Positions 13,742-44,570 of a stretch of 64,000 nt of DNA are shown here, piece by piece. This stretch comes from an uncultured delta proteobacterium (lineage in GTDB: Bacteria > Desulfobacterota > Binatia > UBA9968). The number at the start of each line of letters is the position of its first letter. Position 1 is the first letter of the stretch. The position numbers and the translations under genes are program-made. The notes under the pieces were generated by a model. The model ran no database searches. It was not told where the DNA came from and saw only the letters and a list, made by a program, of their open reading frames with translations. The DNA is taken from assembly GCA_963816145.1 (NCBI GenBank), contig CAWFJP010000001.1:160001-224000 (forward strand), given 5' to 3'.

Positions 13742-15589
13742 TTGCGCACAAGTGGTGAACACAGAACTGAATTGGAACCTACCCCCACTGAGAACACCGT
13801 GGCTTTTCGGGCGGCTGATTTTTCCACGCTATGCGAGGCCCTGGATTACTCAGCCCTGGGACAGACCGGGTGCAATTTCTACGGGAGTCGGGGCGAGTTG
13901 TGCGCCGTTCTGTCATATGCGGATCTTCGAGAGCAGGCACTATCCTTGGCGCGAAAGCTTTTGAGCTTGAGACTCGACCGGGGCGCTCGAGTAGCAATCA
14001 TTGCCGAGACCGATCCAAATTTTCACCGCATATTTTTCGCTTGCCAGTACGCCGGTCTCGTGCCAGTGCCGGTTTCGGCATCGACGTTCATGAGTGGCCG
14101 AGAGGCTTACGTCGCACAACTCAGGGCGCTTCTGCGCGATTGCCGAGCGTCCGTCGCGATGGCGCCGTCTGAGTTCTATCCCTTTTTGGCCGAGGCCGCC
14201 GAGGAGTCAAATATTGCCCATGTCGGCACACTGGAATCCTTCGAGCGACTGCCTGAGTCTCAAGAGAGTCTGCGCCCCTCGGAGCCGGATGAGGTCGCCT
14301 ATCTTCAATATACTTCCGGAAGCACGCGATTTCCCCGCGGAGTAATTATTACCCAAAAGGCGGTCCTCGCCAATCTGAATGAAATCATAATTCATGGCCT
14401 CAAGCTCCGCCCCGGTGACCGCGCCTTCTCCTGGCTGCCCTTTTATCACGACATGGGGCTGGTGGGATTCGTGCTCGGGCCGATGGTGTCGCAGATCTCC
14501 GTGGATTATTTAAAAACCTGGATGTTTGCCATGCGACCACTGTTGTGGTTGTCCTTGATGACACGCACCAAAGCCACCATTTCGTTTAGCCCGTCTTTCG
14601 GTTATCAACTGTGCGTGAAGCGTCTCAGGGGGGATGTCGCCAGCACTTTCGATCTCGGCGCGTGGCGGGTCGCCGGAGTAGGCGCCGAAACGATCCGGTC
14701 AGCTGCCTTGGCGGAGTTTGCCGAAGTTCTGCAACCAAGCGGATTTAAGGCGAGCGCATTTATGCCCTGCTACGGAATGGCAGAGGCCGCCCTCGCCGTA
14801 AGTTTCACACCCGTCGACCAAGGTATCACCGTTGATCGAGTTGACCCGGCTGCGTTATCCGAGCGTGGAATGGCTTTGGCCGTGAATGGGCGTGACCCAG
14901 GCTCCGAACGGGTGATATCAAATACAAGACCGTTTGTAATTTGCGGCGTCCCTCTGCCGGGAACTCAAGTCGAAATTCGTGACGAGCAAGGCAGAGTTCT
15001 GCCGGATCGCCATGCCGGTGTTATTTTTTTGCGCGGCGCAAACATGATGTCCGGGTACTTCGACAATCTCGAGAGAACTCGTGAGGTCTTGTCCTCGGAC
15101 GGATGGTTTGACACCCAAGACATTGGCTATCTCGCCGAAGGTCGGGTTGTGATCATTGGCCGCAAGAAAGATGTCATCATTATCAATGGCCGAAAAATCT
15201 GGGCTCAAGATTTGGAGCATCTCGCTGAGGAATTGCCCGAGGTGAGAACGGGCGACGCATGCGCGTTTTCGCTACTGAACCCTAATGGGATTGAAATGGC
15301 GGCGATGGTTGTGCAGTGGCGCGAGGGGAATTCGACCAGGGAAGGAGAGTTTGCCCATCGCTTGCAGGGGCTGATCGGCGAGCGCTTCGGGATAGACTGT
15401 TTCATTGAGATTGTTCCGCCGCACACCCTGCCGCGTACGTCCTCCGGAAAGCTTTCCCGTTCGAAGGCACGGGAAGAATTTCTGAGCCGGCATGATCCGG
15501 CTATTCTGCAACGAAAATGGGTCAGGCGAAGCGCGTCCACCGAGGCTCGGCAGGAAGAATCAAATCCATGCGCGGCGTCGTCGCGTTGA
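13742..15589 (+). CDS. Fatty acyl-AMP ligase / acyl-ACP synthetase
   Basis: YLQYTSGSTRFPRGV, SWLPFYHDMGL, CYGMAE, RTSSGK. Confidence 0.9.
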   Translation: MRTSGEHRTELEPTPTENTVAFRAADFSTLCEALDYSALGQTGCNFYGSRGELCAVLSYADLREQALSLARKLLSLRLDRGARVAIIAETDPNFHRIFFACQYAGLVPVPVSASTFMSGREAYVAQLRALLRDCRASVAMAPSEFYPFLAEAAEESNIAHVGTLESFERLPESQESLRPSEPDEVAYLQYTSGSTRFPRGVIITQKAVLANLNEIIIHGLKLRPGDRAFSWLPFYHDMGLVGFVLGPMVSQISVDYLKTWMFAMRPLLWLSLMTRTKATISFSPSFGYQLCVKRLRGDVASTFDLGAWRVAGVGAETIRSAALAEFAEVLQPSGFKASAFMPCYGMAEAALAVSFTPVDQGITVDRVDPAALSERGMALAVNGRDPGSERVISNTRPFVICGVPLPGTQVEIRDEQGRVLPDRHAGVIFLRGANMMSGYFDNLERTREVLSSDGWFDTQDIGYLAEGRVVIIGRKKDVIIINGRKIWAQDLEHLAEELPEVRTGDACAFSLLNPNGIEMAAMVVQWREGNSTREGEFAHRLQGLIGERFGIDCFIEIVPPHTLPRTSSGKLSRSKAREEFLSRHDPAILQRKWVRRSASTEARQEESNPCAASSR

Positions 15590-16527
15590 CGGGAGCGACC
15601 GGATTCATCGGTAGCGCGATAGCTCGAAAACTCGTAAACGAAGGGTGGCGCGTCCGCGCGCTCATCCGCGCGCCATCGCGGCGAGCACGCCTCGAGGGAA
15701 TCTCGATTCAGTGGGTTCACGGCACACTCGAAAATTTTGAGCACCTCGATAGCCTGGTGGGCGATGCGGATGCCGTGGTCCACTGCGCAGGGGCGCTGCG
15801 CGGTATCACCGACGCCGATTTTTATTCTGTGAATGTTGAGGCGGTGTCACGGCTGGCGCAAATTGCCACGCTCAGGAGCCCCGCTCCCCGGTTCCTTTTA
15901 ATTTCATCTTTGGCAGCTCGGGAACCAAATTTGTCGGCCTACGCGGCCAGCAAGCGGATGGGAGAGATCGCCCTATCCCAAATGGCCGGCGGTTTCGCGT
16001 GGACCGTGCTTCGCCCGCCAGCTGTCTATGGCCCCGGCGACCGTGCACTGCTTCCCCTGTTCCGCCTTATGCGGCGCGGGATCGCTCCGTTGCTAGGCCG
16101 AACTGACGCCAGATTCTCTCTGCTCTATGTCGAAGATCTGGCGGAGGCGGTGCTAAAATGGCTGGTCAGCGAGAGCCGAGAGAGCCGCGTGTTCGAGTTG
16201 GATGACGGACACCCAAGGGGATATAGCTGGAGTGAGGTTGCGGAAACGTTCGAGCGGCTTCGCGGAAAACCGGCGTTTCGTTTCCACTTGTCCGAGCTGC
16301 CCATGAATGTCGCCGCGAAGCTTAATCAAATCGCCGCATCGGTTATAGGATACGCGCCAATGTTTACCGAGGGGAAAGTGCGGGAGATTAGGCATCCCGA
16401 CTGGGTGTGTGACAACTCCATGTTTTGCCAGGCGGCCAATTGGAAGCCCACGATGTGTCTGGAAGAAGGGCTGCGGGCGACTCTTAGCCTCACGGCAAGT
16501 GGTGTCAGTGGCCTGGGGCAGGGTTAG
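15568..16527 (+). CDS. NAD-dependent epimerase/dehydratase, CerR-like ceramide reductase candidate
   Basis: TGATGFIG, ISSLAAREP, YAASK, RPPAVYGPGD; context next to ligase, ACP and SPT. Confidence 0.8.
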   Translation: MRGVVALTGATGFIGSAIARKLVNEGWRVRALIRAPSRRARLEGISIQWVHGTLENFEHLDSLVGDADAVVHCAGALRGITDADFYSVNVEAVSRLAQIATLRSPAPRFLLISSLAAREPNLSAYAASKRMGEIALSQMAGGFAWTVLRPPAVYGPGDRALLPLFRLMRRGIAPLLGRTDARFSLLYVEDLAEAVLKWLVSESRESRVFELDDGHPRGYSWSEVAETFERLRGKPAFRFHLSELPMNVAAKLNQIAASVIGYAPMFTEGKVREIRHPDWVCDNSMFCQAANWKPTMCLEEGLRATLSLTASGVSGLGQG

Positions 16528-16649
16528 ACATCTGCCCCCGATTGGGGTATGAGGCTTTTAAACAACCTGGCTGTAGGAGGGATCGAAGGTCAACTCTTTT
16601 AGCGGAGGATCTCGTGCAGGCGGGGCCAGCGACTCTTGCCCGAGAGGCA

Positions 16650-17991: not shown

Positions 17992-18240
17992 ATGAGCCAC
18001 TACGAGTCGATACTTTCCCAACTCTATGAAATTTTAGGGCCGTATACGCCGGACGGGCAGAGCCTTTCCGAGAACACGGAATTCATATCCGATCTAGGCC
18101 TCGATTCGATGAAGGTCATGCAGCTCCTGCTCGATACCGAAGAACGGTTCGACATTTCCATTCCCCTGAATATCATCCCGGACGTGCGGACCGTCGGGCA
18201 TTTCGCCCGCTGTCTCCAGCAACTCGTTGACCGAGGGTAA
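17992..18240 (+). CDS. Acyl carrier protein
   Basis: 82 aa, acidic, DLGLDSM phosphopantetheine motif; coupled to SPT start. Confidence 0.92.
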   Translation: MSHYESILSQLYEILGPYTPDGQSLSENTEFISDLGLDSMKVMQLLLDTEERFDISIPLNIIPDVRTVGHFARCLQQLVDRG

Positions 18241-19421
18241 TGGCCCTCCTTGACAAATTCCAGCAAATTGCCGGCGCCCGCGCGGCGCTGGCGCAATTGG
18301 GCGAGGACCCTTTCCGGGCGACGATTGAACGGATCCTGTCGCCAACCGAGGCCATTGTAAACGGCCGTCCAATGATCCTCGCGGGAACGAACAACTATCT
18401 TGGTCTCACCTTAGATGCTCAGTGCGTAGAAGCGGCGGTCCGAGCCGTGCGAGAAGAAGGAACGGGAACTACCGGATCGAGGATGGCTAACGGCAGCTAT
18501 GGCGGGCACGTTGCGTTGGAGAAGGATCTGGCGGACTTTTATGGGCGCCGGTGGTGTGTCGTGTTCTCAACCGGGTACGTTGCCAATCTGGGCGTTATTT
18601 CGGCGCTCACCGGGCCGGGAGATGTGATCCTTCTCGATGCCGATTGCCATGCAAGCATTTATGACGGCTGCCGGATGAGCGGGGCAGAAGTTATTCGGTT
18701 CCGTCACAACGATGTCGGGGATCTCGATAAGCGCCTGCGACGTTTTGGGGAGCGTCGTGCCGACACGCTGATCGTCGTGGAAGGCATCTATAGCACGCTG
18801 GGGGATCGAGCGGCGCTGGCGGAAATCGCGGCGGTAAAACAGGATCATGGCGCTTGTTTGCTTGTAGACGAAGCTCATTCGCTTGGAGTGCTGGGGGAGC
18901 GGGGCCGCGGACTTTCGGAGGAGAGTGATGTCGAAAGCAGCGTCGATTTTATCGTCGGCACGTTCAGCAAAAGCCTGGGAGCCACCGGCGGATTTTGCGT
19001 CTCGGATCACCCCGAGGCGGAGCTGATCCGATATGCAAGCCGCCCGTATATTTTCACCGCATCTCCCTCCCCGGCGGTGGTCGCTTCGACCAGAGCCGCT
19101 TTAAACAGGCTCCGAAACCAGCCTGAACTCCGTGTCCGGCTGTGGAACAATGCGCGGCGATTGTATCAGTCATTGCAGGAGATGGGATTCAGACTGGGTC
19201 CCGAGGTTAGTCCGATTGTCGCGGTCCGGTTCGCGCAGCGCGAAGAAGCGTTCGGCTTGTGGAACGCCCTTCTGGATCAAGGAGTATATGTCAACTTGAT
19301 TTTGCCGCCGGCGGCCCCCGACGGCGGCAGCTTGCTTCGTTGTAGCGCGACCGCGGCGCACACGCCGGACCAGATCGATCGAATCTGCAAAGCATTTGCT
19401 ACCGCCAGGGCATTATATTGA
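18240..19421 (+). CDS. spt: Serine palmitoyltransferase (AOS family, PLP-dependent)
   Basis: GTNNYLGL, GTTGSRMANG, HASIYDG, DEAHS, GTFSKSLG; ACP/CerR/bCerS context. Confidence 0.85.
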   Translation: MALLDKFQQIAGARAALAQLGEDPFRATIERILSPTEAIVNGRPMILAGTNNYLGLTLDAQCVEAAVRAVREEGTGTTGSRMANGSYGGHVALEKDLADFYGRRWCVVFSTGYVANLGVISALTGPGDVILLDADCHASIYDGCRMSGAEVIRFRHNDVGDLDKRLRRFGERRADTLIVVEGIYSTLGDRAALAEIAAVKQDHGACLLVDEAHSLGVLGERGRGLSEESDVESSVDFIVGTFSKSLGATGGFCVSDHPEAELIRYASRPYIFTASPSPAVVASTRAALNRLRNQPELRVRLWNNARRLYQSLQEMGFRLGPEVSPIVAVRFAQREEAFGLWNALLDQGVYVNLILPPAAPDGGSLLRCSATAAHTPDQIDRICKAFATARALY

Positions 19422-19523: not shown

Positions 19524-21284
19524 ATGCGGTTTTTGATTACCATCGCCCGGATGTATCCCGGACGGAGCGCGCTCACGCTGGTCGCGCTGTTATTTGCCAG
19601 CGTCGCGGAGGGGCTCAGTCTGCTCTTGCTGCTTCCATCGCTCAACCTGCTGACCAACGACGCCGCTCAAGGTCCCGGCAATGGGTTATCGGGGCTCGGA
19701 CACATGCTGACCGAAGCGCTCTCGGCAATTGGCGTAACGCCGACAGTCGGCGCTTTGCTGGGCATCATGGTCATCTGTCTTGCGCTCAAGGCGGTATTTT
19801 TGCTCCTGGCGAACGCCCAGGTCGGCTACACCGTTGCCCATGTCACGACCGACTTGCAACTCTCCCTGCTTCGCGCCTTGTTGGCTGCCCGGTGGGAGTT
19901 TTACGTGCGCCAACCTGTGGGCGGCCTGACCAATGCCATCGGCACCGAAGCGCTCCGGGCGTCACAGGCGTATCTTCAAGGCGCCAGGACTCTGGTGGCT
20001 CTCGTTCAAGCCATTGTCTTCGCGGGCGCGGCCTTTTTTCTTACGTGGAAGGGCGCCCTGCTATCCCTCGCGGCAGGAGGGATGGTCCTTTATGGGCTGC
20101 GCCGGCTCGTCCGCATGGCGCATCATGCCGGCATGCGCCAGACTCAACTGCTCAAGTCTCTCTTGACCCGATTGACCGACAGCCTTCAATCGGTCAAACC
20201 TCTGAAAGCAATGGCCCGTGAAGAACTGGTCGGCTCTCTTCTCAGATCAGAAAACAAGCGCTTGAATCGCGCGTTGCGTCAGGATGTGATCAGCACGGAG
20301 ACTCTGACCGCGGCTCAGGATTTCACGATTGGGCTGATCATCACCTCCGGTTTGTACGTGGCCCTGATTCAGTGGAAGCTGCCGTTCAACGCCGTGCTCG
20401 TCATGATTCTGGTCCTTACGCGCTCGATTGTATATATGGGAAAGACCCAGCGGCAATATCAAAAAATGAAGTCCTATGAGAGCGCCTTCTGGTCGTTGCA
20501 GGCCGTCATTGAAGACACCAGCCGCGCCCGCGAAACGAATCCAGAGGGCGCTTCTCCCCGCCTTGAGCACTCGGTTCGCCTGAACAATGTCAGTTTCGGC
20601 TATGGAAAAGTATCTGTGCTTGGGAATGCGTCGCTCACCGTCCCGGCGGGTTCATTCACTGCCATCATGGGGCCGTCGGGAGCGGGGAAAACCACGATCG
20701 CCGATCTGATCATCGGCCTGCTCCGTCCACAGCAAGGCGAAATACTGATTGATAATGTGTCATTGGAGCAGATTGACCTCAGGCAGTGGCGCAGGATGAT
20801 CGGCTACGTGCCGCAGGAATCTTTCCTGCTGCACGAGACGGTCCTGTGGAACGTGACGCTTGGCGATCCGGAGGTGAACGAGGCCGACGCCGAGGCTGCG
20901 CTGCGCGCCGCCGGGGCATGGGAATTCGTCGCGGAACTGCCGCAGCAAATACACAGCTCGGTGGCGGAGCGCGGTATGGCGCTCTCAGGCGGCCAGCGAC
21001 AGCGTATCGCGATCGCGAGGGCGTTGGCTCGCCGCCCCAAGCTGCTGATCCTCGATGAGGTCACAAGCTCGCTCGACCCGCAGACCGAGGCGGCAATTTG
21101 CCAAACGTTGCAAAGCCTTCGAGGTCAGCTGACCATCTTGGCGATCTCGCACCAGCCCGCCGTCGTCGAAGCCGCCGATAGAATTTACCAGATACAGAGC
21201 GGCGAGGTTATTTTAGTCCGCGATGGCCGTGAGTTGGATCTCGTCTCCGGCCAGTTACAAAAGTTACGCAGCGCCCAAACATAG
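19524..21284 (+). CDS. ABC exporter, fused TMD-ATPase (MsbA-like flippase candidate)
   Basis: Multiple TM helices, GPSGAGKT, LSGGQRQR, ILDE. Confidence 0.9.
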   Translation: MRFLITIARMYPGRSALTLVALLFASVAEGLSLLLLLPSLNLLTNDAAQGPGNGLSGLGHMLTEALSAIGVTPTVGALLGIMVICLALKAVFLLLANAQVGYTVAHVTTDLQLSLLRALLAARWEFYVRQPVGGLTNAIGTEALRASQAYLQGARTLVALVQAIVFAGAAFFLTWKGALLSLAAGGMVLYGLRRLVRMAHHAGMRQTQLLKSLLTRLTDSLQSVKPLKAMAREELVGSLLRSENKRLNRALRQDVISTETLTAAQDFTIGLIITSGLYVALIQWKLPFNAVLVMILVLTRSIVYMGKTQRQYQKMKSYESAFWSLQAVIEDTSRARETNPEGASPRLEHSVRLNNVSFGYGKVSVLGNASLTVPAGSFTAIMGPSGAGKTTIADLIIGLLRPQQGEILIDNVSLEQIDLRQWRRMIGYVPQESFLLHETVLWNVTLGDPEVNEADAEAALRAAGAWEFVAELPQQIHSSVAERGMALSGGQRQRIAIARALARRPKLLILDEVTSSLDPQTEAAICQTLQSLRGQLTILAISHQPAVVEAADRIYQIQSGEVILVRDGRELDLVSGQLQKLRSAQT

Positions 21285-21368: not shown

Positions 21369-22601
21369 TTGGATAGAAGAGTTTTCCCCATACCGTTGAA
21401 GAAGACCGGGAAGGAAGTGAACATTGCCGTGAGCGCTGGCGACGCGCTCGGTCCACCGACCGACACCCCTCAGCGGCCGCGGGTTTGGGTGCTCCTCAGC
21501 GACCGCGCCGGCGACAACGCGCAATTATTGCGGCTCGCCGAAGCGCTAGGCTGGCGCTTCGAAACAAAGCGCATTCGTTACAACCGGCTCAATCGGTGCC
21601 CGAACCTGCTGCTAGGTGCCTCGAAGCTCGCCGTGGATACTCGGCGCTCCGATCCATTAGCGCCACCGTGGCCAGATCTGGTGATCGGCGCCTCACGCCG
21701 TGCCGCGCCTCTGGCGCGCTGGATCAAGAAGCAATCGGGCGGGCGCAGCCGCTTGGTGCACCTGCTGCACGCTCAGGCGCCCTTGCATTATTTCGATTTG
21801 GTGGTAACCACGCCGCAGTACCGCCTGCCTGAGCGGTCCAACGTGTTGCACAACCTGTTGCCCTTGAACGCTGCGCAGCCGGAAGTTCTGGAATCGTCGG
21901 TGGCGCAATGGCGCGGGCGGCTGGAGCATCTGTCGCGACCCTGGATCGCGGTGCTGGTGGGAGGCAATAGCTCCAGCTACCGACTGGACGCGTTCACGGC
22001 GAGCCAACTCGGGCAGTTCGCCAGCCGCACGGCGCGTGAAACCGGCGGGAGCCTTCTTATCAGCAGCAGCTCGCGCACACCGCCGGATGCCGCTGATGCG
22101 CTGTTGGCCGCGGTACAAGTCCCTGCTTACGTCTACCGGTGGCAGTCGACGAACAAGGACGAAAATCCATATCTAGCTTATCTCGCGCTCGCCGACCGCT
22201 TCATCGTCACCGCCGATAGCGCGTCGATGCTCGCGGAAGCCTGCTCCACCGGTCGTCGGGTCGATTTGTTCGATTGGACGCCCCGCAGACAACCGAAGCG
22301 GCTGCTCCGCGCGTTTCCTGGATCACAACGGATTGAAGAGACCTTGATCCACTGGGGCGTCATCAGACCGAAACGCGATTTTCAGGCGCTTCATCGCGGA
22401 TTGATTGAACGTGGGCTCTTGTGCTCTCCCGGTCAGGAGCAATCGCTGCAACCCGCAAAGTCGGACGATCTTGCGCGCGCTGTGAGCAGAATACGCCGGC
22501 TCATGGGCGAAGGGGAGAGCGAGCGGGCTCCTACAGAGCCCCAATACCAAGTAGGAGATTACAGCCCCAAAGCCCACCACCGCCTGAATAGGCCGTCATA
22601 G
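21369..22601 (+). CDS. ELM1/GtrOC1 family putative glycosyltransferase
   Basis: RAGDNAQ, PPWPDLVI, LVGG, SSRT, NPYLAYLALADRFIVTADSASMLAEA; start uncertain. Confidence 0.85.
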   Translation: MDRRVFPIPLKKTGKEVNIAVSAGDALGPPTDTPQRPRVWVLLSDRAGDNAQLLRLAEALGWRFETKRIRYNRLNRCPNLLLGASKLAVDTRRSDPLAPPWPDLVIGASRRAAPLARWIKKQSGGRSRLVHLLHAQAPLHYFDLVVTTPQYRLPERSNVLHNLLPLNAAQPEVLESSVAQWRGRLEHLSRPWIAVLVGGNSSSYRLDAFTASQLGQFASRTARETGGSLLISSSSRTPPDAADALLAAVQVPAYVYRWQSTNKDENPYLAYLALADRFIVTADSASMLAEACSTGRRVDLFDWTPRRQPKRLLRAFPGSQRIEETLIHWGVIRPKRDFQALHRGLIERGLLCSPGQEQSLQPAKSDDLARAVSRIRRLMGEGESERAPTEPQYQVGDYSPKAHHRLNRPS

Positions 22602-23050: not shown

Positions 23051-23241
23051 CGGAGTCTAGCCCGCACTCTTATCGGACATTGCCCGCTGCGAAGTTGGGA
23101 TGGGAGCCAGTCCTTACTCTCTGCCGCTTGTCAGGTTCTCCAGGTCGGGCGGCAGGCGGGCGGCAGGATAAATAAGAGTTCCGGCGGGTCACCACTTAGA
23201 AAAAAAATTCCTATCATCTCATTTGATTCTTGTCATCCATT

Positions 23242-32574: not shown

Positions 32575-32599
32575 CACCGATTCCTTCACTGTTCTACCA

Positions 32600-35011: not shown

Positions 35012-36493
35012 TCAGGCAACTGTGGCTGGCGCGCTGGCGGGTGGGTGGCGAAATTTTAAAACGGTAAAAAAATACGACGCGCCCAGCGGCCACGCATAGG
35101 CAACCAGCATCCAGAAGAGGACCGATTTGTTGCCGAGGAAGCTTGCGAGAAAAATGTAAAACGTACGAATGTCGCCTTTCGTAAACGGCTGAATTCTCCG
35201 AAACACAGCGAACCAACGGGTCTCCGCCTGCGTTTTCAAAAAGTCGACGCCCATGGCTTGGATGCTCACGTATCCCGCTCGCCGCAAAAAACGACTGTGA
35301 TAAACGACGGCGCTCCCATACCATGCGGCGGTTGCCAACGCGACAACAAGATACCCCAGATCGCGATGCGATTCGCGATAACACGCGATGGTCAAAAATA
35401 CAAACGGAAGCGCGAAGCGCAGGTCGTCAATGAGCATATCGAACCGTGCTCCGGCTTCCGATTCATAATTGCGGATGCGTGCGACCTCACCATCACACCG
35501 GTCTAACACCCCGGCAGAAAACTGCCACACAACGGCAAACACGAGCATTGCCCAGTACTGCGGGATGAGCAGAAAAGCGGAGGCGAAGAGGAATAGGCCG
35601 AGTTCCAGGATGCTAATCGCGTTTGGGCTGAAGCCAAAACGCACAAATAAGAACGTCAAGGGTTTGGAGAGGTGGGAGTTGACCAGTTTGGAAAATTCCC
35701 CACTAATTTCTTTGAAAGCAATACGCCAAAAAAATTCAGTCCGGTCCTCTTGCGATTCTCTTCCAGTAACCGGCAGCCACCAAACATTTTCGACGAACCC
35801 CAGCCTGAGGAGTTGCTGCTTGCGCCAGTGGTGGATCAGATCAGCAACATTGCTCCATGAAAGGTGTTCCAAATGAACGCGATGACAAACAACCACGTCG
35901 GTGCTGAAGACGCCATTGGAGAGGGTGGAAGAGACTTCTACCGGATCAGCAGGTCCGACATCGAAGCTGTTGCTCTGGAAAACGGTTTTATCGAGCGCAA
36001 TCTTGGTAAAGGACTCGGGATGGGCAAAGATCACTTTGAATTTGTCCGGGAATGCACTCTCGAAAGCGACCTTCCCTTCATTTAACCACACATTTTTATA
36101 GACAGCGAGCACCGGTTTTGGTGATGCGGCAAATTGGGCCAGCTGCGCAAAAAATGTCGGATGGACAACTTTATCTGTTTCGAACAGCAAAAAAGACGTA
36201 TCCCATGGTTCGGCGAGACGGGACACTACCTCAGAAAGTGTCTCACCGGTACGGATCGGACAAATATCAAAATCCAGCGCAAGTCGGGTTCGTGCCTTCC
36301 CGATTAGCGCAACAATCGTTTCACGGTCTTCCTCATGACTAACGATCCCTACGGATCGTATCCCTGCCTTTGACAGAGCAACCAGAGCGCGGGTCAACAG
36401 GGGTTCCCCACCGTACACCGCGTCATACGTTGCCTTGGTAGGTGCCGTATTCAGAGCCAAAAGAACGACCTTTGTGATGCCTGCCACTGCCAT
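35012..36493 (-). CDS. CDP-alcohol phosphotransferase with N-terminal nucleotidyltransferase-like domain
   Basis: SPNAIS and LDRCDGEVAR...GARFDMLIDD signature; N-terminal domain degenerate. Confidence 0.8.
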   Translation of the reverse strand: MAVAGITKVVLLALNTAPTKATYDAVYGGEPLLTRALVALSKAGIRSVGIVSHEEDRETIVALIGKARTRLALDFDICPIRTGETLSEVVSRLAEPWDTSFLLFETDKVVHPTFFAQLAQFAASPKPVLAVYKNVWLNEGKVAFESAFPDKFKVIFAHPESFTKIALDKTVFQSNSFDVGPADPVEVSSTLSNGVFSTDVVVCHRVHLEHLSWSNVADLIHHWRKQQLLRLGFVENVWWLPVTGRESQEDRTEFFWRIAFKEISGEFSKLVNSHLSKPLTFLFVRFGFSPNAISILELGLFLFASAFLLIPQYWAMLVFAVVWQFSAGVLDRCDGEVARIRNYESEAGARFDMLIDDLRFALPFVFLTIACYRESHRDLGYLVVALATAAWYGSAVVYHSRFLRRAGYVSIQAMGVDFLKTQAETRWFAVFRRIQPFTKGDIRTFYIFLASFLGNKSVLFWMLVAYAWPLGASYFFTVLKFRHPPASAPATVA

Positions 36494-36513: not shown

Positions 36514-37245
36514 TCACACTAGTTTTCTTGAAACGCCAGGTCGATAAGATTGCGGCCGCAAGGGATTCCCTTTGGGAGGATCTTGAATATTAAGTTCTCT
36601 CATCCTTAAAAAGGTAAATCCCAGGAAATAGAGAAAAAAGGCTATGGCAATACACAACACGATAGCGTCAAAAGAGAAAATGCTTACGCTACCCAGATTA
36701 ATCAACGGATTGGTGCCGAAATAGAATATGGCGTTCACGCCGAGAAGAAACACGCGAACTTCTGTGGGGCCGATTTTGCCGTAAGAAATTTTGTACACTC
36801 CGGATACGGCGGTGTTGATATTCGTTAAAACCCCAAGGTGCAAATAACCGACGAGCGCTAGAAGCGCGAAGTTGAAGTGGACAAACGGAGATAATCCCAG
36901 GCCGAGAAAAAATATGGTTTGCGTTGTGATATCAACAGTATGATCGACGAAATAACCGTATTGGAATCGTTCGATTTTGCGGTATCGTGCCAATGAGCCA
37001 TCGAGACTATCTCCGAACCAATTGATCAGAAGGCCAAGATCAACGATCCATAGAAAATTTTTATTCGCATTGCACAACCAGAACCCAATCGCCATGACTA
37101 CCCCGCCAATCAAGCCAACCCCAGTGAGTATGTCGGGAGTCATCCAGGCAGGCATGTGTTTACATAGCCACTGCAACGCAGTTCGTTCCAGCGGCGCGAG
37201 GAAAGTGTCGTTGACACGAACGTCGGCTGTCTTGGAGGTATCCAT
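36514..37245 (-). CDS. CDP-alcohol phosphatidyltransferase
   Basis: TPDILT, GDSLDGSLAR...GYFVDHTVD, GPTE. Confidence 0.88.
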   Translation of the reverse strand: MDTSKTADVRVNDTFLAPLERTALQWLCKHMPAWMTPDILTGVGLIGGVVMAIGFWLCNANKNFLWIVDLGLLINWFGDSLDGSLARYRKIERFQYGYFVDHTVDITTQTIFFLGLGLSPFVHFNFALLALVGYLHLGVLTNINTAVSGVYKISYGKIGPTEVRVFLLGVNAIFYFGTNPLINLGSVSIFSFDAIVLCIAIAFFLYFLGFTFLRMRELNIQDPPKGNPLRPQSYRPGVSRKLV

Positions 37246-37311: not shown

Positions 37312-38451
37312 TCAGACTGCTTTTTCATAAATACGGTAGCGTTTATACGGGATGCCACCGATCATCGTGAGCATATTCCGCATCGGCATGTTATCTTCCA
37401 GAATCCAGGACAGTTCAACTTCCTGAACTCCGCGCCTGATTCCATAGCCGCGCACGGCATCGATAAGCAGGAACCCCAGCGCGGCTCCAAGCGGGCTTCG
37501 CTGAAAACGTTTGCGCACTCCCATCAGGACAACGCGAGCCGTTTTCGGAGATTTCACTTTCAGCCGCCACAAGAGCTTGAGCCAGCCAAATGGAAGCAAA
37601 CGTCCCTGCAGGTCTCGTATCACTTCATTTAAGTTCGGCAAGGCTACGATCATCGCGGCCGGCACGCCGTCCACTTCCGCTATTTGCACGGCATCGTCAT
37701 CGACTAGCAGTCGCAAGCTGTAGCCTAGATGCCGAACCTCGTCTTTGCTGAATGGAATGAATCCCCAGTTGGTAGACCAGGCATCCTCGAAAATGTCCTT
37801 AATAATTTCGAGGTCCTCATTTAACCGTGATCTGCGCAGTGGCCTGACCCGCGCGCGGCCAGCGGCTTTGTTCATAACGGCCTTCATGATCTCGGGGGGG
37901 GTGAATTGGGCGGAGAGACGATAGGCCAGCAAGTCTTTTACGCCCTGGTATCCCTCGGCTGTCAGCCGAGCGGCATAGTACGGGCGGGAGTGGCCCATCA
38001 TAATCATTGGGGGGGTGTCGTAACCGTCCACAAGAAGCCCGCACTCCTGGTTGATGGAAAAGTTGAACGGGCCGCGAACTCGCAACATGCCCTGGTCACG
38101 CAGCCAGCCTTCAGCCGTGCTCAACAGTTCGTGAAACGTCCCCGCCTCATTCTCGGCCTCGAGGAACCCAAAAAAACCGGTGGCATCCCGATACCTCTCT
38201 TCGTGCAATTCATCAATTTGGGCGCTGATCCGACCGACTGGCCTGCTCCCGCGGTAGGCAAGCCAAAAACAGCAGCGCGCGTGCGTGAAGTATGGGTTGC
38301 GGGGAGAAAAGTGCTCGCGTCGCTCTAGCAACAAATGCGGGACCCATGTTGGGTCGTCGGCATAGACCGACCAAGGCACGCGAATGAACCGGCGCATGTC
38401 GCGGGAGTTACGTACCGGCACGATTCTTATCGATTCGACAGCGGGACGCAC
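37312..38451 (-). CDS. GNAT N-acyltransferase, bacterial ceramide synthase (bCerS)-like
   Basis: VGRISAQID, RGPFNFSINQECGLLVDG, NWGFIPF, ELSWILEDN. Confidence 0.8.
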   Translation of the reverse strand: MRPAVESIRIVPVRNSRDMRRFIRVPWSVYADDPTWVPHLLLERREHFSPRNPYFTHARCCFWLAYRGSRPVGRISAQIDELHEERYRDATGFFGFLEAENEAGTFHELLSTAEGWLRDQGMLRVRGPFNFSINQECGLLVDGYDTPPMIMMGHSRPYYAARLTAEGYQGVKDLLAYRLSAQFTPPEIMKAVMNKAAGRARVRPLRRSRLNEDLEIIKDIFEDAWSTNWGFIPFSKDEVRHLGYSLRLLVDDDAVQIAEVDGVPAAMIVALPNLNEVIRDLQGRLLPFGWLKLLWRLKVKSPKTARVVLMGVRKRFQRSPLGAALGFLLIDAVRGYGIRRGVQEVELSWILEDNMPMRNMLTMIGGIPYKRYRIYEKAV

Positions 38452-38849: not shown

Positions 38850-39845
38850 TTGTCCGAGATGAAGCATCGTTTTTCCTTCAAGAAATTTCTCTATTACCGA
38901 ACAGGGGAATATTGCCTAAGGGCAATTATCTTCCTCGTTCCGAGGATCCCGCAACGCCTGATCGTCCTCATCACGGCGGCGACCGTCCGACTAACTTTCG
39001 CTATTTTATGGTCATACCGAAAACTGATGGAAGTGAACGTCTCCATGGCCTTGAGCGACGAATCCTTACCGGTGGAGACGAGAAAGAGCGTGGCTCGTAC
39101 GACCTGGAGGAATTTTGTCCAGGGACTTTATGAGACTGCCTGCACCCTTTATACCTCCAGGGACGCGATATGTGCCAGCGTTGCTATTGAGGGCGAGGAG
39201 TATTTGAAGCGGGCTTTGGAAAAGGGCAACGGAGTGATCGCTCTCGGCCCTCATTTAGGAAATTTTACTATGATTGGTCCCCGTCTTGCCGCGGCCGAAT
39301 ACCCCGCCAGCATTTTAGTCAAGCAACCACCAGACGAAAGATTATCCCGCTTGCTTGACAGCTACAGAGCGAAGGCTGGGGTAAAAACGATATCGGCTAA
39401 GCCGCGCAGGCAGGCGGCCCGACAAATCCTTGGCGCATTAAGGCGGAACGAAGTGGTTATTATCCTCCCGGATGCGTTTAAATCTGGAAAAGTAAACACG
39501 CAGTTTTTGGGTGCCCCTGTCTATATTCGCCGTGGTCCCGTGACCCTGGCTTTACGCGCGGGCGCGGCGGTTCTTCCTATGTGTGTCACGCGCGACGCTG
39601 AGGATCGTCTGACCCTTCGTATCAGCCCTGAAATCGATCTCGTCAAGACAGGAGACCTGCAGCAGGATGTTGCTGCAAATCTCGCCCTGTTTACTCGTCA
39701 TTTGGAAGACATGGTGCGGCTGTATCCCGATCAGTGGTGTCGGCTTTCAGCGCAAGGAACGGAAAGCAATAATGTCCGGCCGATGTTTTCTGATTTTGTG
39801 CAGCCGGCAGTCGAACTGAAAGAGGTTAAAGAACGCCGCTCATGA
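38850..39845 (+). CDS. Lysophospholipid / LpxL-family acyltransferase
   Basis: GEEYLKRALEKGNGVI, HLGNF, FLG, LALRAGA, YPDQW. Confidence 0.8.
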   Translation: MSEMKHRFSFKKFLYYRTGEYCLRAIIFLVPRIPQRLIVLITAATVRLTFAILWSYRKLMEVNVSMALSDESLPVETRKSVARTTWRNFVQGLYETACTLYTSRDAICASVAIEGEEYLKRALEKGNGVIALGPHLGNFTMIGPRLAAAEYPASILVKQPPDERLSRLLDSYRAKAGVKTISAKPRRQAARQILGALRRNEVVIILPDAFKSGKVNTQFLGAPVYIRRGPVTLALRAGAAVLPMCVTRDAEDRLTLRISPEIDLVKTGDLQQDVAANLALFTRHLEDMVRLYPDQWCRLSAQGTESNNVRPMFSDFVQPAVELKEVKERRS

Positions 39846-40122: not shown

Positions 40123-41523
40123 TCAGCCCTGGGATGGCCTTGACTCTGAGGTGGCGGCGTCATAACGGCTCGGCGGTATGCACCGGCTTTCGAGAACGAG
40201 TTTAAACGCCCCGTGAGGTCCGAACGGAAAGCTTTGTTGCCGGCGGGGCCGAACCGCCGTGGCCGCATGGATGCTGAAGCGGCAATGGCGCAGCAGAGCC
40301 GCCAGGACCACTTTCATTTCGTAAAAAGCGAACGTTGCGCCCAGACAACGATGCGTCCCGCCGCCAAATGGCACGAATTCAAAAGGTGAATACTTGCGTT
40401 GGAGGAAGCGCTGGGGTTGGAACTCACCCGCCGCTGGATAGAGGTCCTCACGCATATGGACCAAGCTGGCGATCGACGCCACGCCATAGCCCGCCGGCAA
40501 CGAGTAGCCCAGAAATTGGAAGGGGCGGCGCAACAAGCGCGGCACCTCGGGCAATATCGGGCTCAATCGCAAGGTCTCGTTGCACACGGCATCCAGGTAA
40601 GGCAACGTCATAAGTTGCTTGAATTCGGCATCGTCTTCCACCGTCGCCAACTCGTCACATAAGTGCGCAAGCACTTCTGGGTGACGGTGCAACCAATAGA
40701 GCGCCCATGCCAACGCGCTTGCGAGCGTTTCGTGTCCGGCGGCCACGAGTGACACCAGCTGGTCGCGAATTTCCAAGTCGCTCAATCCGCTTCCATCTTC
40801 GTGCCGAACACTGAGCAGCAAGCCGAGAATGTCATCCTCGGAAGACGTGTGGCGAGCCTCGGCGATCAAGCTATAGACCGTGTCATCGAGCTGTTTCATG
40901 GCGCGGCAAAATTTCGCCCAAGGTCCGAATCCACCGAACTGATGCCGCAACATCGAAACAAATGTAATGGCGGGACTGGTGGTCTGTTGCACTGCGTGAA
41001 GAGAGGTTCTCAAGAGTGCCTTGCGATGTTCTTTGGCACCGAAAAAGACGCGCAAAATGATCTCGAAAGAGAGGGCTTGCATCGCTTCCTGGGCGACAAA
41101 CGGCTGCCCCATGGGCCACCCGGCCGCCGCCTCGGTGGCGATCGCCTGCATGGTCGAAGAAAACTGGACTACCTGACGGCCATGGAAACGAGGCATGAGC
41201 AGACGGCGCATGCGCAGGTGCGATACGCCGTTGGAGAGCATGAGAGACGAAGCCCCGAGAAACGGTTGCACGCTGGATTGGGCAAAAATGTCGAAAGTAT
41301 CGGGGTCGGCAGCAAAGATGGTTTCAATGCCCTCTGGCCGGCCCGTCACCACGAGAGGGCCAAACGGGGTGGGCATGAGAAACGGGTCGCCATAGAGACG
41401 CACGCAGCGGGCATAGAACCCACATGGGTCGCGCAAATAGCGAGCCACAACCAGCGGCATCCAACGCGGCCCTGGGGGAAAGCGGTCCACCACCTGCTCC
41501 CGATCACGAGATATGGCTGTCAT
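40123..41523 (-). CDS. Cytochrome P450
   Basis: AGHET, ETLR, FGGGTHRCLG. Confidence 0.95.
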   Translation of the reverse strand: MTAISRDREQVVDRFPPGPRWMPLVVARYLRDPCGFYARCVRLYGDPFLMPTPFGPLVVTGRPEGIETIFAADPDTFDIFAQSSVQPFLGASSLMLSNGVSHLRMRRLLMPRFHGRQVVQFSSTMQAIATEAAAGWPMGQPFVAQEAMQALSFEIILRVFFGAKEHRKALLRTSLHAVQQTTSPAITFVSMLRHQFGGFGPWAKFCRAMKQLDDTVYSLIAEARHTSSEDDILGLLLSVRHEDGSGLSDLEIRDQLVSLVAAGHETLASALAWALYWLHRHPEVLAHLCDELATVEDDAEFKQLMTLPYLDAVCNETLRLSPILPEVPRLLRRPFQFLGYSLPAGYGVASIASLVHMREDLYPAAGEFQPQRFLQRKYSPFEFVPFGGGTHRCLGATFAFYEMKVVLAALLRHCRFSIHAATAVRPRRQQSFPFGPHGAFKLVLESRCIPPSRYDAATSESRPSQG

Positions 41524-41985: not shown

Positions 41986-42322
41986 GCTAACTCTTCAAAG
42001 GTTTTCCCTGCGCTCTCCATCGTCAGCTTCTCTATTATCGCATCAATAGCTCGTAACCGACCTCTCGCCATCGCTCGGCTTCCTGTGCCCGGCGCACCTG
42101 CGCTAAATGTACCACTGCTCCCAGACAGACTCTCCCATCGGTGATTTTTGGTTCGAGTCCTGAGCAGGCAGAGAATCCCTGCTTCTCCAAAGCCCCTTGC
42201 CAGCTCTTCCTCACTCCTGGGAGCTCAGGGCCTGCTAAAAACAGGTATTGTTTCCCACGATCAGCGGGGCGCTGTGTGTGTAATTCCGTATAGGCATTCC
42301 TGTTTATGCTGGTGGAATCTGT

Positions 42323-43369
42323 CTAACTCGGTTCTTTTCGGCTCGGAGACGGGACGACAATCGCCGCAGACGCACGCTCTAGACCGCACTTTGGCTCGGT
42401 CAGCCAATGGCTCAGATCGCGCTGCAGCAGATTGGAGAGCTTGGTCACGTCCTCCGCAAGCGTGTCTCGCAGCATCTGCTTGACGTCGGGAGCCAGAGGT
42501 GTTGGGCGCGTGCTAATCGTGTTCCACCGCGCCAACCGTTCCAGCCTAGATTTTTTACCGGTGGCTTTCTTCTTCTGGTCCATCTTCCAGATCAGGTCTA
42601 AGGTATCGACCACATGCGCCTTGCTCGCCAGAGGGGCGTAGAGCAACCTCTGTAGCCAATGATAGCGGTAGATACGGCTCCCGAGCTTCCGCTGAAATTT
42701 CGTTCTGCCGTCGTACTCAACCCCTATAAACTGAAGCACGTGTTTGTACACCGTCAGTGGGTCGCGCACGAGGTCGTCGAGGAGGAGAACAAGGCAGCGG
42801 TCGCGCCCGGCGAGTTGATAGAGGCGCTCGATCTGCAGTCCAAAGCTGGCGACCTCACGGTACATCAGTAGTTGGGGGGCAAAGCAGTGTTTGGGAATCC
42901 GCTCGCCTCGTGCTCTCATTTCCTGCAAACTCCAGGCGGTGGCAAAGTCCTCTACATCTTCCATGAAGGTGAAGCGCATCCGCAAATGATACGAGGCAAG
43001 CATGTCCAGCGGATTACGTAAGATGGCAATGAACCTGGCCTGTGGGTTGAGGCTCAAAATTCGCCGTAGGGCATCGGGAGAGTAGAGGTAAGAAACAGAC
43101 CCCTCTCCGATCGCCTTATGACTTTCCCGATAGTGAGAAAAGTAACGCGCCAAGTAGGCGGTCTCTAAGTCGTCGAGCGAGGCGCGCGACGCGAACAACG
43201 AGAAATAGTGTGGCTCCTTAGGCCGCGAGAAGCACACCTGCGGGTTATTTGCGAGGTAGTTGCTCAACGAAGTCGTGCCGCACCGCGGTGCCCCGATGAG
43301 GAAAAAATCCGGAAAACGCTCTGGCTTTGTCAAGATGTTCCCTCCGCTAGTAATGCTGTCCAAATGCAT
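42323..43369 (-). CDS. PAPS-dependent sulfotransferase
   Basis: IGAPRCGTTSL, KEPHYF, GEGSVSY, LRNP..MLASY. Confidence 0.9.
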   Translation of the reverse strand: MHLDSITSGGNILTKPERFPDFFLIGAPRCGTTSLSNYLANNPQVCFSRPKEPHYFSLFASRASLDDLETAYLARYFSHYRESHKAIGEGSVSYLYSPDALRRILSLNPQARFIAILRNPLDMLASYHLRMRFTFMEDVEDFATAWSLQEMRARGERIPKHCFAPQLLMYREVASFGLQIERLYQLAGRDRCLVLLLDDLVRDPLTVYKHVLQFIGVEYDGRTKFQRKLGSRIYRYHWLQRLLYAPLASKAHVVDTLDLIWKMDQKKKATGKKSRLERLARWNTISTRPTPLAPDVKQMLRDTLAEDVTKLSNLLQRDLSHWLTEPKCGLERASAAIVVPSPSRKEPS

Positions 43370-43775
43370 AATAGATGTAGGACGTGCGCAGCGCGCCCCC
43401 CCCGGTGGGTACTCCGCGCCCTAAAAAGCTGCCCACCGCCTCGTCGTTCACCGCCTGTTTCAATTCAGCTCGCTCGGAGGCGGCGGGCCAAAATTTTGCT
43501 TGTGGTGTAATCTACCGCACTGCGCTGTTCAGCGCTACCCCGACGAACGGGCCATGATCGTTGTGAAGTCTGCCCGGCTCTCGAACTCCGAATAAAAACT
43601 GCCGATCTTACTGTTCTTGCTCAGATGTATGAACCGTGGCGGTTGCCACGGAGATCAGCCCAATCCAAGTGGCGCCCACTATGTCTCATGTGCATGGGTT
43701 CGGGCGCTTCGGAGCGACGGGCGCCGTCGACGCGGGTGCCGGGATTCCTTGCTCCTTCCGCCGGAATCCGAGATA

Positions 43776-44570
43776 ATGCGAGGCATGCTTGACGTGGCGT
43801 CGGTGACGAGCACCGTATGTGAACTCTTCGGGATTCCCAGACCGGCCGATTGCGTCGCGCCCCCATTCAGCGAGGTCGCTGCATTCGCGGCGCGTCGAAC
43901 CGTGACGAAGGCACTCGTGTTCGCAGCCGACGCGATCGGTGCGCACATGGTCCGCTCATACGCTGAGGCCTTTGAGCCGGTCGCGCGCCACGCACCAACA
44001 TCGGTTGAAGCTTGCGCCGTGATGCCCTCGGTCACACCCGTCTGCTTCGCATCGATGTTCACGGGCGCCCCTCCGGACACCCATGGCATCCGCAAGTCCG
44101 AAAAGCCGACGCTGACCTGCGACACCCTCTTCGACGCGCTCTCGCGGGCTGGCCACCGTGTCGCCATAGTGGCCGTGAAGAACTCCTCAATCGATCTGAT
44201 CTTCCGGAATCGGAGGATTGACTACTTCACCGAGACCTACGACGAGGAGGTGGTTGAGCGGACGCTCAACCTCGTCGCAGCGAACCAGCATGACTTCATT
44301 CTGGCTTACCAGCAGGAGTACGACGACAAGATGCACGCCACGTTACCACGGAGTCCAGAGGCGCTGCGCGCGATGGCCAACCACGTACGCAACTTCGATC
44401 GGGTCGCTCGCGCGGCACGCGAAAGGTGGGCTACCATGTCACACACCGTTGCATTCGTGTCAGATCACGGCACGCACATCGATCCATCGACGGGGCGTGG
44501 GACGCACGGCAGCAACCTGGCGGACGACCTCGAGGTGCGTCTCTTCTGGGGAGTTCACTTCCCGGTCTAA
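43776..44570 (+). CDS. Alkaline phosphatase superfamily (NPP/phosphodiesterase-like)
   Basis: ADAIG, PSVTPVCFASMFTG, DDKMH, SDHG, THG. Confidence 0.75.
   Translation: MRGMLDVASVTSTVCELFGIPRPADCVAPPFSEVAAFAARRTVTKALVFAADAIGAHMVRSYAEAFEPVARHAPTSVEACAVMPSVTPVCFASMFTGAPPDTHGIRKSEKPTLTCDTLFDALSRAGHRVAIVAVKNSSIDLIFRNRRIDYFTETYDEEVVERTLNLVAANQHDFILAYQQEYDDKMHATLPRSPEALRAMANHVRNFDRVARAARERWATMSHTVAFVSDHGTHIDPSTGRGTHGSNLADDLEVRLFWGVHFPV

Follow-up and report, generated by a model that had tools for sequence, protein, structure and literature searches.

We analysed 64,000 nucleotides of DNA (the window; G000:C1:160001-224000, with G, C and L numbers serving as our handles for genomes, contigs and loci) from the metagenome-assembled genome (MAG) of an uncultured Binatia bacterium—7.8 Mb in 31 contigs. 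The region from 12.7 or 13.3 kb to 44.6 kb is, in our judgement, probably a horizontally acquired cassette of ~31 kb for making a ceramide, elaborating a complex head group on it and exporting the result. An earlier reading of the bare sequence (hereafter the original prediction) had proposed an island-borne sphingolipid pathway; all of the gene families it named were recovered where it had placed them by Pfam and NCBIfam profile searches (equivalog cut-offs being those of NCBIfam), and its island borders lie near the homology borders with related copies (left 12716 or 13288-13685, right 44581). The genes between 13.7 and 44.6 kb fall into four tightly packed transcription blocks. For the neighbourhood survey, 80 spt loci were taken from GTDB species genomes, 37 of them with full 10-kb flanks and spanning Thermodesulfobacteriota, Nitrospirota, Methylomirabilota, Pseudomonadota, Gemmatimonadota and other phyla. 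Gene distribution was followed in 30 other genomes of the genus, in 400 genomes of the class and in a 400-genome sample of the phylum, and the related island copies that were compared (G651, G798, G799, G800, G801 and others) are fragmentary. Genus tallies take in one unpublished genome (G005), and no claim depends on that genome alone.

The ceramide core comprises the following genes:
13742..15589, plus strand: AasR-type fatty acyl-AMP ligase (acyl-ACP synthetase); NF006624, 753 bits, cut-off 600; true start probably near 13780-13805
15517..16527, plus strand: short-chain dehydrogenase/reductase (SDR) of the CerR/Epi type; Pfam Epimerase 2.2e-26; start likely at 15568; no signal peptide or transmembrane (TM) segment
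17992..18240, plus strand: dedicated acyl carrier protein (ACP) of the AcpR type; PP-binding 2.1e-9; directly upstream of spt
18240..19421, plus strand: Spt (serine palmitoyltransferase); NF047599, 633.8 bits, cut-off 500
37312..38451, minus strand: bCerS/YghO-type GNAT N-acyltransferase; weak Pfam match, reciprocal best hit of E. coli YghO

The protein encoded by spt clears the curated Spt cut-off and fails those of the rival NCBIfam models for bioF (331 bits, cut-off 426) and Kbl (298 bits, cut-off 460). Among structures in the Protein Data Bank (PDB), the Sphingomonas SPT 2x8u was matched with 438 bits, as against 209 for Kbl, 196 for BioF and 184 for cysteate acyltransferase, and both the GTFSKS motif with the pyridoxal phosphate-binding lysine and the His/Asp motifs align with those of solved SPTs. 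The original prediction had proposed a tree of SPT against BioF and Kbl; in a quick maximum-likelihood reconstruction, 80 Spt sequences stand apart from the host's own BioF-like paralogue, with the island Spt among them in a five-row clade of 100% support. Moreover, when the annotated proteins of the E. coli B-type cluster were searched against the whole host genome, the best genome-wide matches of seven of them all lay inside the island, and the reverse search agreed. The identities were 55% for Spt, 47% for YghO (375/380 amino acids (aa), 1.5e-114; the sole YghO match in the genome), 46% for the ligase (over 560 aa), 42% for Epi (over 309 aa, with the next genome match at 26%), 37% for the ACP, 35% for LptG and 34% for LptF. 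In E. coli, Spt, AcpR and AasR make 3-oxo-sphinganine, and Spt was assayed with serine (excerpt of PMC9386255). The ACP stop codon overlaps the spt start at 18240, and the same core recurs within 10 kb of spt across the full-flank loci (ligase in 37, SDR in 36, ACP in 36 and GNAT in 30 of the 37). With the Spt equivalog cut-off passed and five reciprocal best hits to E. coli, the core of ligase, ACP, SPT, CerR-like SDR and bCerS-like GNAT that had been proposed is well supported at the level of sequence, with serine use and ceramide output as its predicted activities. Spt-like potential has been reported across 40 bacterial phyla (excerpt of PMC11334938); no paper combining Binatota and sphingolipid was found in the literature searched.

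Two candidates were set aside. Alpha-oxoamine synthases of intermediate score (363-447 bits; 59 genomes of the phylum, including G078, G150 and G274) were considered as divergent Spt and dropped; they are probably Kbl, because an E. coli control passes the same threshold. The Atlas name 'dATP pyrophosphohydrolase family' for neighbours of the GNAT, an apparent old label of bCerS, was not used, and no paper in the literature searched links the two terms. As a separate observation, the SDR and Spt of a Salinisphaera MAG (L081 8624-11188) lie in one open frame of 854 aa, either a fusion or a missed stop.

An alpha-oxoamine synthase that does not use serine would direct the cassette to another amino-lipid, such as a sulfonolipid if cysteate is the substrate, or a 1-deoxy base if alanine or glycine is. 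Few residues switch the substrate of these enzymes, a cysteate acyltransferase is among the PDB matches, and 1-deoxyceramides are known in environmental bacteria (excerpt of PMC11334938). However, the curated Spt cut-off is passed, the serine-assayed enzyme of E. coli is 55% identical (excerpt of PMC9386255), and the score to solved SPTs is more than twice that to any other class, which makes this alternative very unlikely in our view.

The cluster also carries genes for the transport of a lipid across and out of the inner membrane:
19524..21284, plus strand: MsbA/HepA-like ABC half-transporter; Pfam ABC_membrane and ABC_tran
25925..26989, minus strand: LptG2; TIGR04408, 337 bits, cut-off 240
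27002..28198, minus strand: LptF2; TIGR04407, 292 bits, cut-off 230

The host genome has four PF03739 genes, namely a housekeeping pair on contig C4 and the pair in the cluster. The E. coli cluster proteins LptG and LptF match the island pair; for the C4 pair, identity is 23% with LptG, and LptF found no match. In E. coli, RefSeq annotation places lptG and lptF beside spt, and one or the other lies within 10 kb of spt at 23 of the 37 full-flank loci (LptF at 22, LptG at 20). A second LptF/LptG pair beside spt is also in print for Caulobacter, where LptC2/F2/G2 and a Wzx-like protein are only proposed (excerpt of PMC11324152), and the spt-linked pair is therefore an already-known part of such systems. 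The original prediction had called the export toolkit unusually large; its gene families are present, yet an spt-linked LptF/LptG pair is nothing unusual, being found in Caulobacter and in E. coli, with LptF or LptG at those 23 loci. The ABC protein has homologues within 10 kb of spt at 49 of all 80 loci and at 24 of the 37 with full flanks, and it is a candidate flippase for a ceramide—possibly oxidised—or for the finished lipid. No sphingolipid flippase or transporter has been identified, according to PMC11087976. A doubtful open reading frame (ORF) of the cluster, orf188, was tried as LptC2 and dropped, given a best Pfam match of E 0.036 to an unrelated DUF and the lack of an N-terminal TM helix.

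The genes assigned to the head-group route are as follows:
28541..29329, plus strand: NTP_transferase, a sugar- or alcohol-phosphate nucleotidylyltransferase; Pfam and NCBIfam; canonical G-x-G-S-R...K motif
35012..36493, minus strand: CDP-alcohol phosphotransferase of IPCT/DIPPS architecture, 493 aa; Pfam CDP-OH_P_transf, fold search
36514..37245, minus strand: short second CDP-alcohol phosphotransferase, 243 aa, with intact motif; PF01066 4.9e-6

Both CDP-alcohol phosphotransferases retain an intact motif, which in the 493-aa enzyme reads D(x)2DG(x)2AR...G(x)3D(x)3D, and both follow the GNAT gene in a minus-strand operon with the order GNAT, 243-aa enzyme, 493-aa enzyme, 800-aa ELM1 protein, 2-oxoglutarate (2OG) oxygenase and GT2 (intergenic gaps of 66, 20, 9, -20 and 75 nt). 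By PDB sequence search the 493-aa enzyme matches AF2299 and 4mnd, and its structure model (pLDDT 84.3) has 4mnd as the top fold match (E 3.5e-13), with the N-domain matching RmlA and inositol-1-phosphate cytidylyltransferase folds. The 243-aa enzyme has an 84% identical counterpart in G800. Homologues of the NTP-transferase lie within 10 kb of spt at 21 of the 37 full-flank loci. Ceramide kinase is found beside spt at 14 of these 37 loci and a Tam41/CDS-like gene at 13; no ceramide kinase (DAGK_cat/LCB5) or CDS/Tam41-like domain was found in the 28 cluster ORFs, and homologues used as queries from L065 and L081 miss the window. Taken together, the gene content suggests that a ceramide-kinase head-group route has been replaced by one that uses the NTP-transferase and the two CDP-alcohol phosphotransferases. 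A CDP-inositol head group was considered and is made unlikely, since myo-inositol-phosphate synthase (MIPS) is lacking in the genome; inositol made in the cell is for the same reason an unlikely activated alcohol. A second NTP_transf_3 gene, widespread beside spt (32 of the 37 loci), is missing from the window; its equation with the N-domain of the 493-aa enzyme or with the NTP-transferase was rejected, there being no BLASTP similarity.

Alongside these genes the cluster encodes a broad set of glycosyltransferases and tailoring enzymes:
16839-17807, plus strand: WaaZ/DUF115-like putative ulosonic-acid (Kdo-type) transferase; TIGR04437 1.1e-26, below cut-off; MptE-like 2.4e-6
21369..22601, plus strand: ELM1 protein, 410 aa, putative GT-B-like glycosyltransferase; PF06258 3.3e-61
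23242..24510, minus strand: SGNH-a, SGNH/AlgX-like protein with N-terminal membrane anchor; Pfam; TM-like segment at residues 5-34
24610..25731, minus strand: membrane fatty-acid-type desaturase; PF00487 (FA_desaturase) 3e-26
29524..30666, plus strand: SGNH-b, a second, variable SGNH/AlgX-like anchored protein; Pfam
30697..31782, minus strand: GT2 glycosyltransferase; PF00535 5.5e-34; last gene of the GNAT-led operon
31858..32619, minus strand: 2OG-Fe(II) oxygenase, putative lipid hydroxylase; PF13640 2.1e-7
32600..35002, minus strand: two-domain GT8 and ELM1 glycosyltransferase, 800 aa; ELM1 4.2e-59; structure model
38850..39845, plus strand: LpxL/HtrB-family acyltransferase, putative secondary O-acylation; PF03279 (Lip_A_acyltrans) 2.5e-29
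40123..41523, minus strand: cytochrome P450, copy-specific; PF00067 9.3e-65
42323..43369, minus strand: sulfotransferase; PF13469/PF00685
16542-16814: orf90, doubtful ORF; no family match
22706-23272: orf188, doubtful ORF; no family match; copy-specific
41785-42144: orf119, doubtful ORF; no family match
42148-42483: orf111, doubtful ORF; no family match

The AlphaFold model of the 800-aa protein (pLDDT 89.6, pTM 0.89) consists of a GT8-like GT-A domain, a middle domain and an ELM1 GT-B domain, with Foldseek matches to GT8 enzymes (3tzt, LgtC and WbbM) on the one hand and to GT-B enzymes (MurG, MGD1 and CalG1) on the other. Its DXD motif is formed by D118 and D120, both conserved in at least 90% of 57 aligned sequences, and many full-length relatives of the fusion (~750-850 aa) occur among the 150 best of 4309 matches. 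A GT-B-like fold may be assigned to the 410-aa protein from the ELM1 domain of this modelled paralogue, bringing the cluster to up to five glycosyltransferase domains—GT8, the ELM1 domain of the fusion, GT2, the 410-aa ELM1 and the WaaZ-like protein. The literature searched contained nothing on ELM1 in bacterial ceramide glycosylation, and ELM1 as a sphingolipid-specific family was rejected, with only 1 of 12 ELM1-positive genomes carrying Spt.

Several of the tailoring genes are shared with related copies and with spt loci elsewhere. The desaturase has an 89.5% identical protein in L003; 2OG oxygenase homologues of 52-56% identity adjoin spt in L003, L009, L011, L012 and L081; the LpxL-like enzyme is 82% identical in G800, its family being present also in the Salinisphaera locus L081; and the sulfotransferase has an 88% DNA match in G798. 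The G798 copy further carries, inside the cluster, a bifunctional ATP-sulfurylase/APS-kinase (PAPS synthase; L003 8866-10605) as well as a 2OG gene, and this PAPS synthase supports sulfation in the island family. In the host genome outside the island, LpxC and two APS-kinase genes are present. The slot that holds the P450 in the window is occupied in G800 (L086 2611-6871) by MlaC, DUF3108 and a desaturase whose N-domain is of the sphingolipid delta4-desaturase (DES-like) type. Other genes vary: the WaaZ-like insertion (16542-17807) is missing between SDR and ACP in 6/6 copies that span this point (L003, L004, L005, L006, L010 and L088) and, by DNA comparison, in L090; no DNA matching SGNH-a was found in G798, G800, G651, G801 or G799, and none matching the P450 in five related genomes; SGNH-b is absent from the G801 copy, and contigs from three RNA-library runs join 29350 to ~30812 without it. 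The large tailoring toolkit of the original prediction is therefore present as genes, but the WaaZ-like protein, SGNH-a, SGNH-b and the P450 are specific to the window copy among the fragmentary copies compared. Of the synteny survey that it proposed, the outcome is that the NTP-transferase and the ELM1, 2OG and LpxL-like genes recur beside spt elsewhere. Apart from this, L081 has an Asp/Asn beta-hydroxylase and an 814-aa ELM1 fusion in addition to its LpxL-like gene.

The features that bear on the borders and mobility of the island are these:
562-2151: identical inverted copy of the IS1182 element at 44677-46266; 1590 nt, 100% identity
12712..13272, minus strand: MarR-family regulator; Pfam MarR 5.2e-16; divergent from the ligase gene; probable left island end
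43617..44570, plus strand: alkaline-phosphatase-fold phosphodiesterase; PF01663 6.5e-10; right end of the shared island
44677..46266, plus strand: IS1182-family insertion sequence (IS); NF033551 2.1e-111; between the island and the tmRNA gene
46606..46958, minus strand: tmRNA gene; ARAGORN; Rfam RF00023 197.5 bits; 3' end facing the island

The phosphodiesterase was absent from the gene list of the original prediction. Cluster DNA is 88-94% identical to that of G651 (same family, other genus), G800, G798, G801 and G799, whereas in the same five genomes the housekeeping flank at 46.5-64 kb is only 66-79% identical and the tmRNA gene 82-89%. A similar disparity holds for G016 of the same genus (cluster 91-92%, flank 73-75%). 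None of 30 congeners has Spt at E<=1e-120, one of them (G016) having a partial copy at a contig end, and G651 alone is positive among 400 genomes sampled from the class; the left flank (5.4-12.2 kb) is native to the genus (75-89% identity). In G004, 11 kb of unrelated content separates this flank from the tmRNA gene. On the G651 contig, the distance between cluster and tmRNA gene is ~1.95 Mb. In G800, 24 kb of defence and catabolic genes precede the cluster, which is placed between tmRNA and smpB. The cluster thus fills, as the sequence comparison indicates, a variable slot beside the tmRNA gene. This points to a clear recent horizontal transfer and to well supported island status, and the island of the original prediction emerges strengthened by the gap between cluster and flank identities, the scarcity of Spt in genus and class and the variable slot; its mobile-looking context is real, with the IS1182 copies and the tmRNA gene in place. 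For its part, the G004 slot (L089, C1:96000-109500) contains a CHRD-domain gene, a DinB-type polymerase split into two ORFs and ~8 kb almost without long ORFs, at ~50% G+C.

On the right, homology ends at 44581, with the phosphodiesterase region at 94% DNA identity to G800. On the left it begins at 12716 for the G801 copy (L006), which takes in the MarR gene, and at 13288-13685 for the other copies. In G798 (L003, C134, 1-602) the 3' end of the phosphodiesterase lies ~90 nt upstream of the ligase promoter region, from which it follows that gene order there is a circular permutation of that in the window; the cause could be a circular intermediate or a rearrangement. The inverted IS1182 copies bracket 42.5 kb, including 10 kb of genus-native genes, with no matching flanking duplications; target-site duplications or swapped flanks were not seen at either copy, and G+C content gave no clear island signal. 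At the site of the G798 phosphodiesterase-ligase junction, G800 has sulfotransferase fragments. Copies with 90-94% protein identity also occur on short contigs in bins labelled Terriglobales and Acidiferrales and assigned to Acidobacteriota (L004 and L010), reflecting either cross-phylum transfer or mis-binning.

Metagenome runs from soil, wetland and peat, belonging to at least 10 studies, contain near-identical 31-mers, and contigs 90-95% identical to the ligase-to-GT2 genes occur in four metatranscriptome libraries of soil or rhizosphere origin, each from a different study, which hints that the copies of relatives are transcribed. These RNA-library contigs leave ~16.5-17.7, 22.4-24.4 and 32.4-33.0 kb uncovered, from which we draw no conclusion.

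Drawing on these assignments, the cassette would operate as follows. By homology, the AasR-type ligase would load the dedicated ACP, Spt would condense the acyl-ACP with serine, the YghO/bCerS-type GNAT would N-acylate the Spt product, and the CerR/Epi-type SDR would reduce the 3-keto group. Domains and operon structure suggest that the NTP-transferase makes a CDP-activated alcohol—probably not inositol made in the cell—which a CDP-alcohol phosphotransferase may place on the ceramide 1-OH in a Kennedy-like reaction, in place of the Caulobacter route through ceramide kinase. Up to five glycosyltransferase domains could then extend the head group, with the desaturase, 2OG oxygenase and P450 modifying the chains, the LpxL-like enzyme adding an ester-linked acyl chain and the sulfotransferase a sulfate; a lipid that is desaturated, hydroxylated, phospho-linked, glycosylated, sulfated and O-acylated is what these gene families would together imply. 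The MsbA-like ABC protein would flip the lipid, and LptF2/LptG2 would extract it to the outer membrane, borrowing the host LptB and bridge. The predicted end product is a glyco-phospho-sphingolipid resembling lipopolysaccharide (LPS) that would accompany ordinary LPS. A bolder version is a tentative proposal that we regard as possible and rather doubtful: a mobile cassette for a second, LPS-like glyco-phospho-(sulfo)sphingolipid of the outer leaflet, with its own flippase and extractor, transcribed in soils, recently passed between Binatia-like genera of soil and perhaps into other phyla (DNA identity ~90%), and assembled from an Spt core and a head-group and export module that serves another lipid in Spt-less relatives.

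A number of observations weigh against the reading of the cassette as a ceramide-based pathway. The Spt substrate, the activated alcohol, the sugars and the acceptors of the tailoring enzymes are all assigned by inference, and the proteins are tied to Spt, bCerS and CerR of Caulobacter as orthologues only indirectly, by way of E. coli and NCBIfam. Within the head-group route, the N-domain of the 493-aa enzyme has the nucleotidyltransferase fold without the canonical G-x-G-x-R loop, and MIPS (PF01658) is absent from a genome that is 99.5% complete, as against 6 of 14 control genomes that were positive. LptC2 was not found among the cluster ORFs. The RNA-library contigs come from relatives and not from the window strain, and such libraries can hold DNA. 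As for mobility, no integrase domain was found in the ORFs scanned, the longest tmRNA-derived att repeat is 12 nt, at chance level, the right island junction runs through an IS with a third identical copy on C31, and contamination of the host MAG is estimated at 6.7%. Finally, the WaaZ-like, SGNH-a, SGNH-b and P450 genes are copy-specific, not being found in the fragmentary related copies, and in the 400-genome phylum sample 12 genomes are ELM1-positive and 16 Spt-positive, with a single overlap (G230). G078, a class relative without Spt above the cut-off, has two module loci (L093 and L094; C31:232000-251999 and C42:419000-436999), one locus with an MsbA-like ABC protein, an ELM1 fusion, a 669-aa CDP-alcohol transferase and an NTP-transferase, and another with an MsbA-like ABC protein, an ELM1 fusion, an ELM1 protein, a 2OG oxygenase and a desaturase. 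The ABC/ELM1/CDP-alcohol/NTP-transferase module is therefore able to serve another lipid, and its link to ceramide rests on operon structure and co-transfer; the island looks like an Spt core joined to such a head-group and export module.

Two further explanations draw on these points. Perhaps only the ceramide core, LptF2/G2 and the ABC protein serve a sphingolipid—probably a simple ceramide or phosphoceramide—and the glycosyltransferases, sulfotransferase, P450, SGNH, LpxL-like and WaaZ-like proteins act on the LPS core, another glycolipid or a polysaccharide and merely travel with it. The free-standing modules of G078, the rarity of Spt among ELM1-positive genomes and the four copy-specific genes speak for it, as does the fact that WaaZ and LpxL are LPS enzyme families in a host that makes lipid A (LpxC). 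However, the GNAT heads the same tight operon as both CDP-alcohol transferases, GT8+ELM1, 2OG and GT2, and this block is kept beside the GNAT at 83-91% DNA identity in G651 and G800. Genes for ELM1, 2OG, LpxL-like and 814-aa ELM1 fusion proteins moreover recur beside spt in Nitrospiraceae and Salinisphaera loci, and the longest contigs with homologues of the 493-aa enzyme and of Spt are equal in size (146368 and 127271 nt) and may be the same NC10-type contigs. On balance, we hold this co-travelling scenario to be unlikely. The other explanation is that the island is foreign to the genome altogether, through mis-assembly across the repeated IS or as a contaminant of the bin. The three-copy IS at the right junction, the contamination estimate and the occurrence of related copies on short contigs or at the ends of contigs, in part from bins with a Terriglobales or Acidiferrales label, would fit such an artefact, which is nevertheless extremely unlikely, for the left junction (12.2-13.7 kb) is free of repeats and runs on without a break into genes that share 78-89% identity with those of congeners, the cluster of the related G800 is likewise placed between tmRNA and smpB, and G016 of the same genus carries it too. 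We retain the reading of a resident, horizontally acquired ceramide cassette with its own head-group and export genes.

Set against characterised systems, the ceramide core and its dedicated Lpt-type export are already known from Caulobacter (CC_1152-1168) and E. coli B, and what is new here is the predicted head-group route, the ABC flippase candidate, the large glycosylation set and the mobility of the island. The E. coli B/BL21(DE3) cluster, yghO(aca)-aasR-epi-acpR-spt plus lptG/lptF (excerpt of PMC9386255), has the same five ceramide genes and the same second Lpt pair, with the ligase-SDR-ACP-spt order preserved and seven reciprocal best hits at 34-55%. However, the 18.7 kb of E. coli DNA inspected lacks an ABC exporter, CDP-alcohol transferases, ELM1, GT2, P450 and sulfotransferase, and holds instead a Wzx-like 'lipopolysaccharide biosynthesis protein', YtfJ and kinase-like genes. 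The Caulobacter crescentus region CC_1152-CC_1168 resembles the window in combining ceramide genes with LptF2/LptG2, a flippase candidate, nucleotidyltransferases, a CDP-alcohol-type transferase (CC_1159/CpgA) and a phosphoesterase, and serves ceramide di-phosphoglycerate, an anionic lipid by its phospho head group and destined for the outer membrane (excerpts of PMC9393093 and PMC11324152). By comparison—made with Caulobacter by description and not by protein sequence—the window lacks a ceramide kinase (DAGK_cat), a CDS/Tam41-like gene and LptC2, its flippase candidate is an MsbA-like ABC protein where that of Caulobacter is of the Wzx type (excerpt of the PMC11324152 supplement), and it has two CDP-alcohol transferases (one IPCT/DIPPS), many glycosyltransferases and a sulfotransferase.

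The 493-aa enzyme shares with Archaeoglobus fulgidus IPCT-DIPPS (4MND) and AF2299 (4O6M) a build of cytoplasmic nucleotidyltransferase-fold and membrane CDP-alcohol phosphotransferase domains; unlike 4MND, to which it is ~16% identical over the fold alignment, its N-domain loop is non-canonical and its presumed acceptor is ceramide rather than inositol phosphate. Sphingomonads lack LPS, and their glycosphingolipids—ceramide with an acidic oligosaccharide in the outer leaflet—stand in for it, whereas the window host, on a comparison by description, keeps LpxC and a housekeeping Lpt system. The pairing of an NTP-transferase with a CDP-alcohol phosphatidyltransferase is found also in the inositol-lipid cluster of Bacteroides vulgatus and Prevotella, a putative Kennedy-like route in sphingolipid producers that is unconfirmed experimentally (excerpt of PMC9246714). 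That cluster is anchored on MIPS and includes a HAD protein, both absent in the window, the families again being compared by description (same excerpt).

These findings bear on the problem of how bacterial sphingolipids cross the inner membrane and get to the outer membrane, as the island, and with it the 24 of 37 loci whose spt is accompanied by an ABC gene, supplies a specific candidate flippase of the MsbA type as well as orthologues of LptF2/G2. They also point to a ceramide head-group route without ceramide kinase, and indicate that a complete sphingolipid synthesis and export pathway can move as one unit between genera, which has implications for the sphingolipid signals of soil lipidomics.

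The window contains further features of minor interest. A stretch of ~160-200 nt at 41792-41987 (the orf119 region) has many copies at 75-91% identity on contigs of G800, G798, G651 and G801 and looks like a small dispersed repeat, similar to a miniature inverted-repeat transposable element (MITE), inserted in the tailoring slot. To the right of the tmRNA gene, a GH3 (NagZ-like) gene is split into overlapping ORFs at 50925-51470 and 51304-52002, probably by a frameshift and possibly by an assembly error. To the left of the island, an intergenic element of ~125-150 nt at 9241-9398 recurs in many copies of 90-98% identity across G019, G003, G009, G021, G022, G007, G004 and G023. Additionally, 4240-5394 consists of repeated segments with 91-98% copies at C29, C1:57296, C24, C23, C12 and C31, and a 65-nt direct repeat occupies 4755-4819 and 5227-5291.

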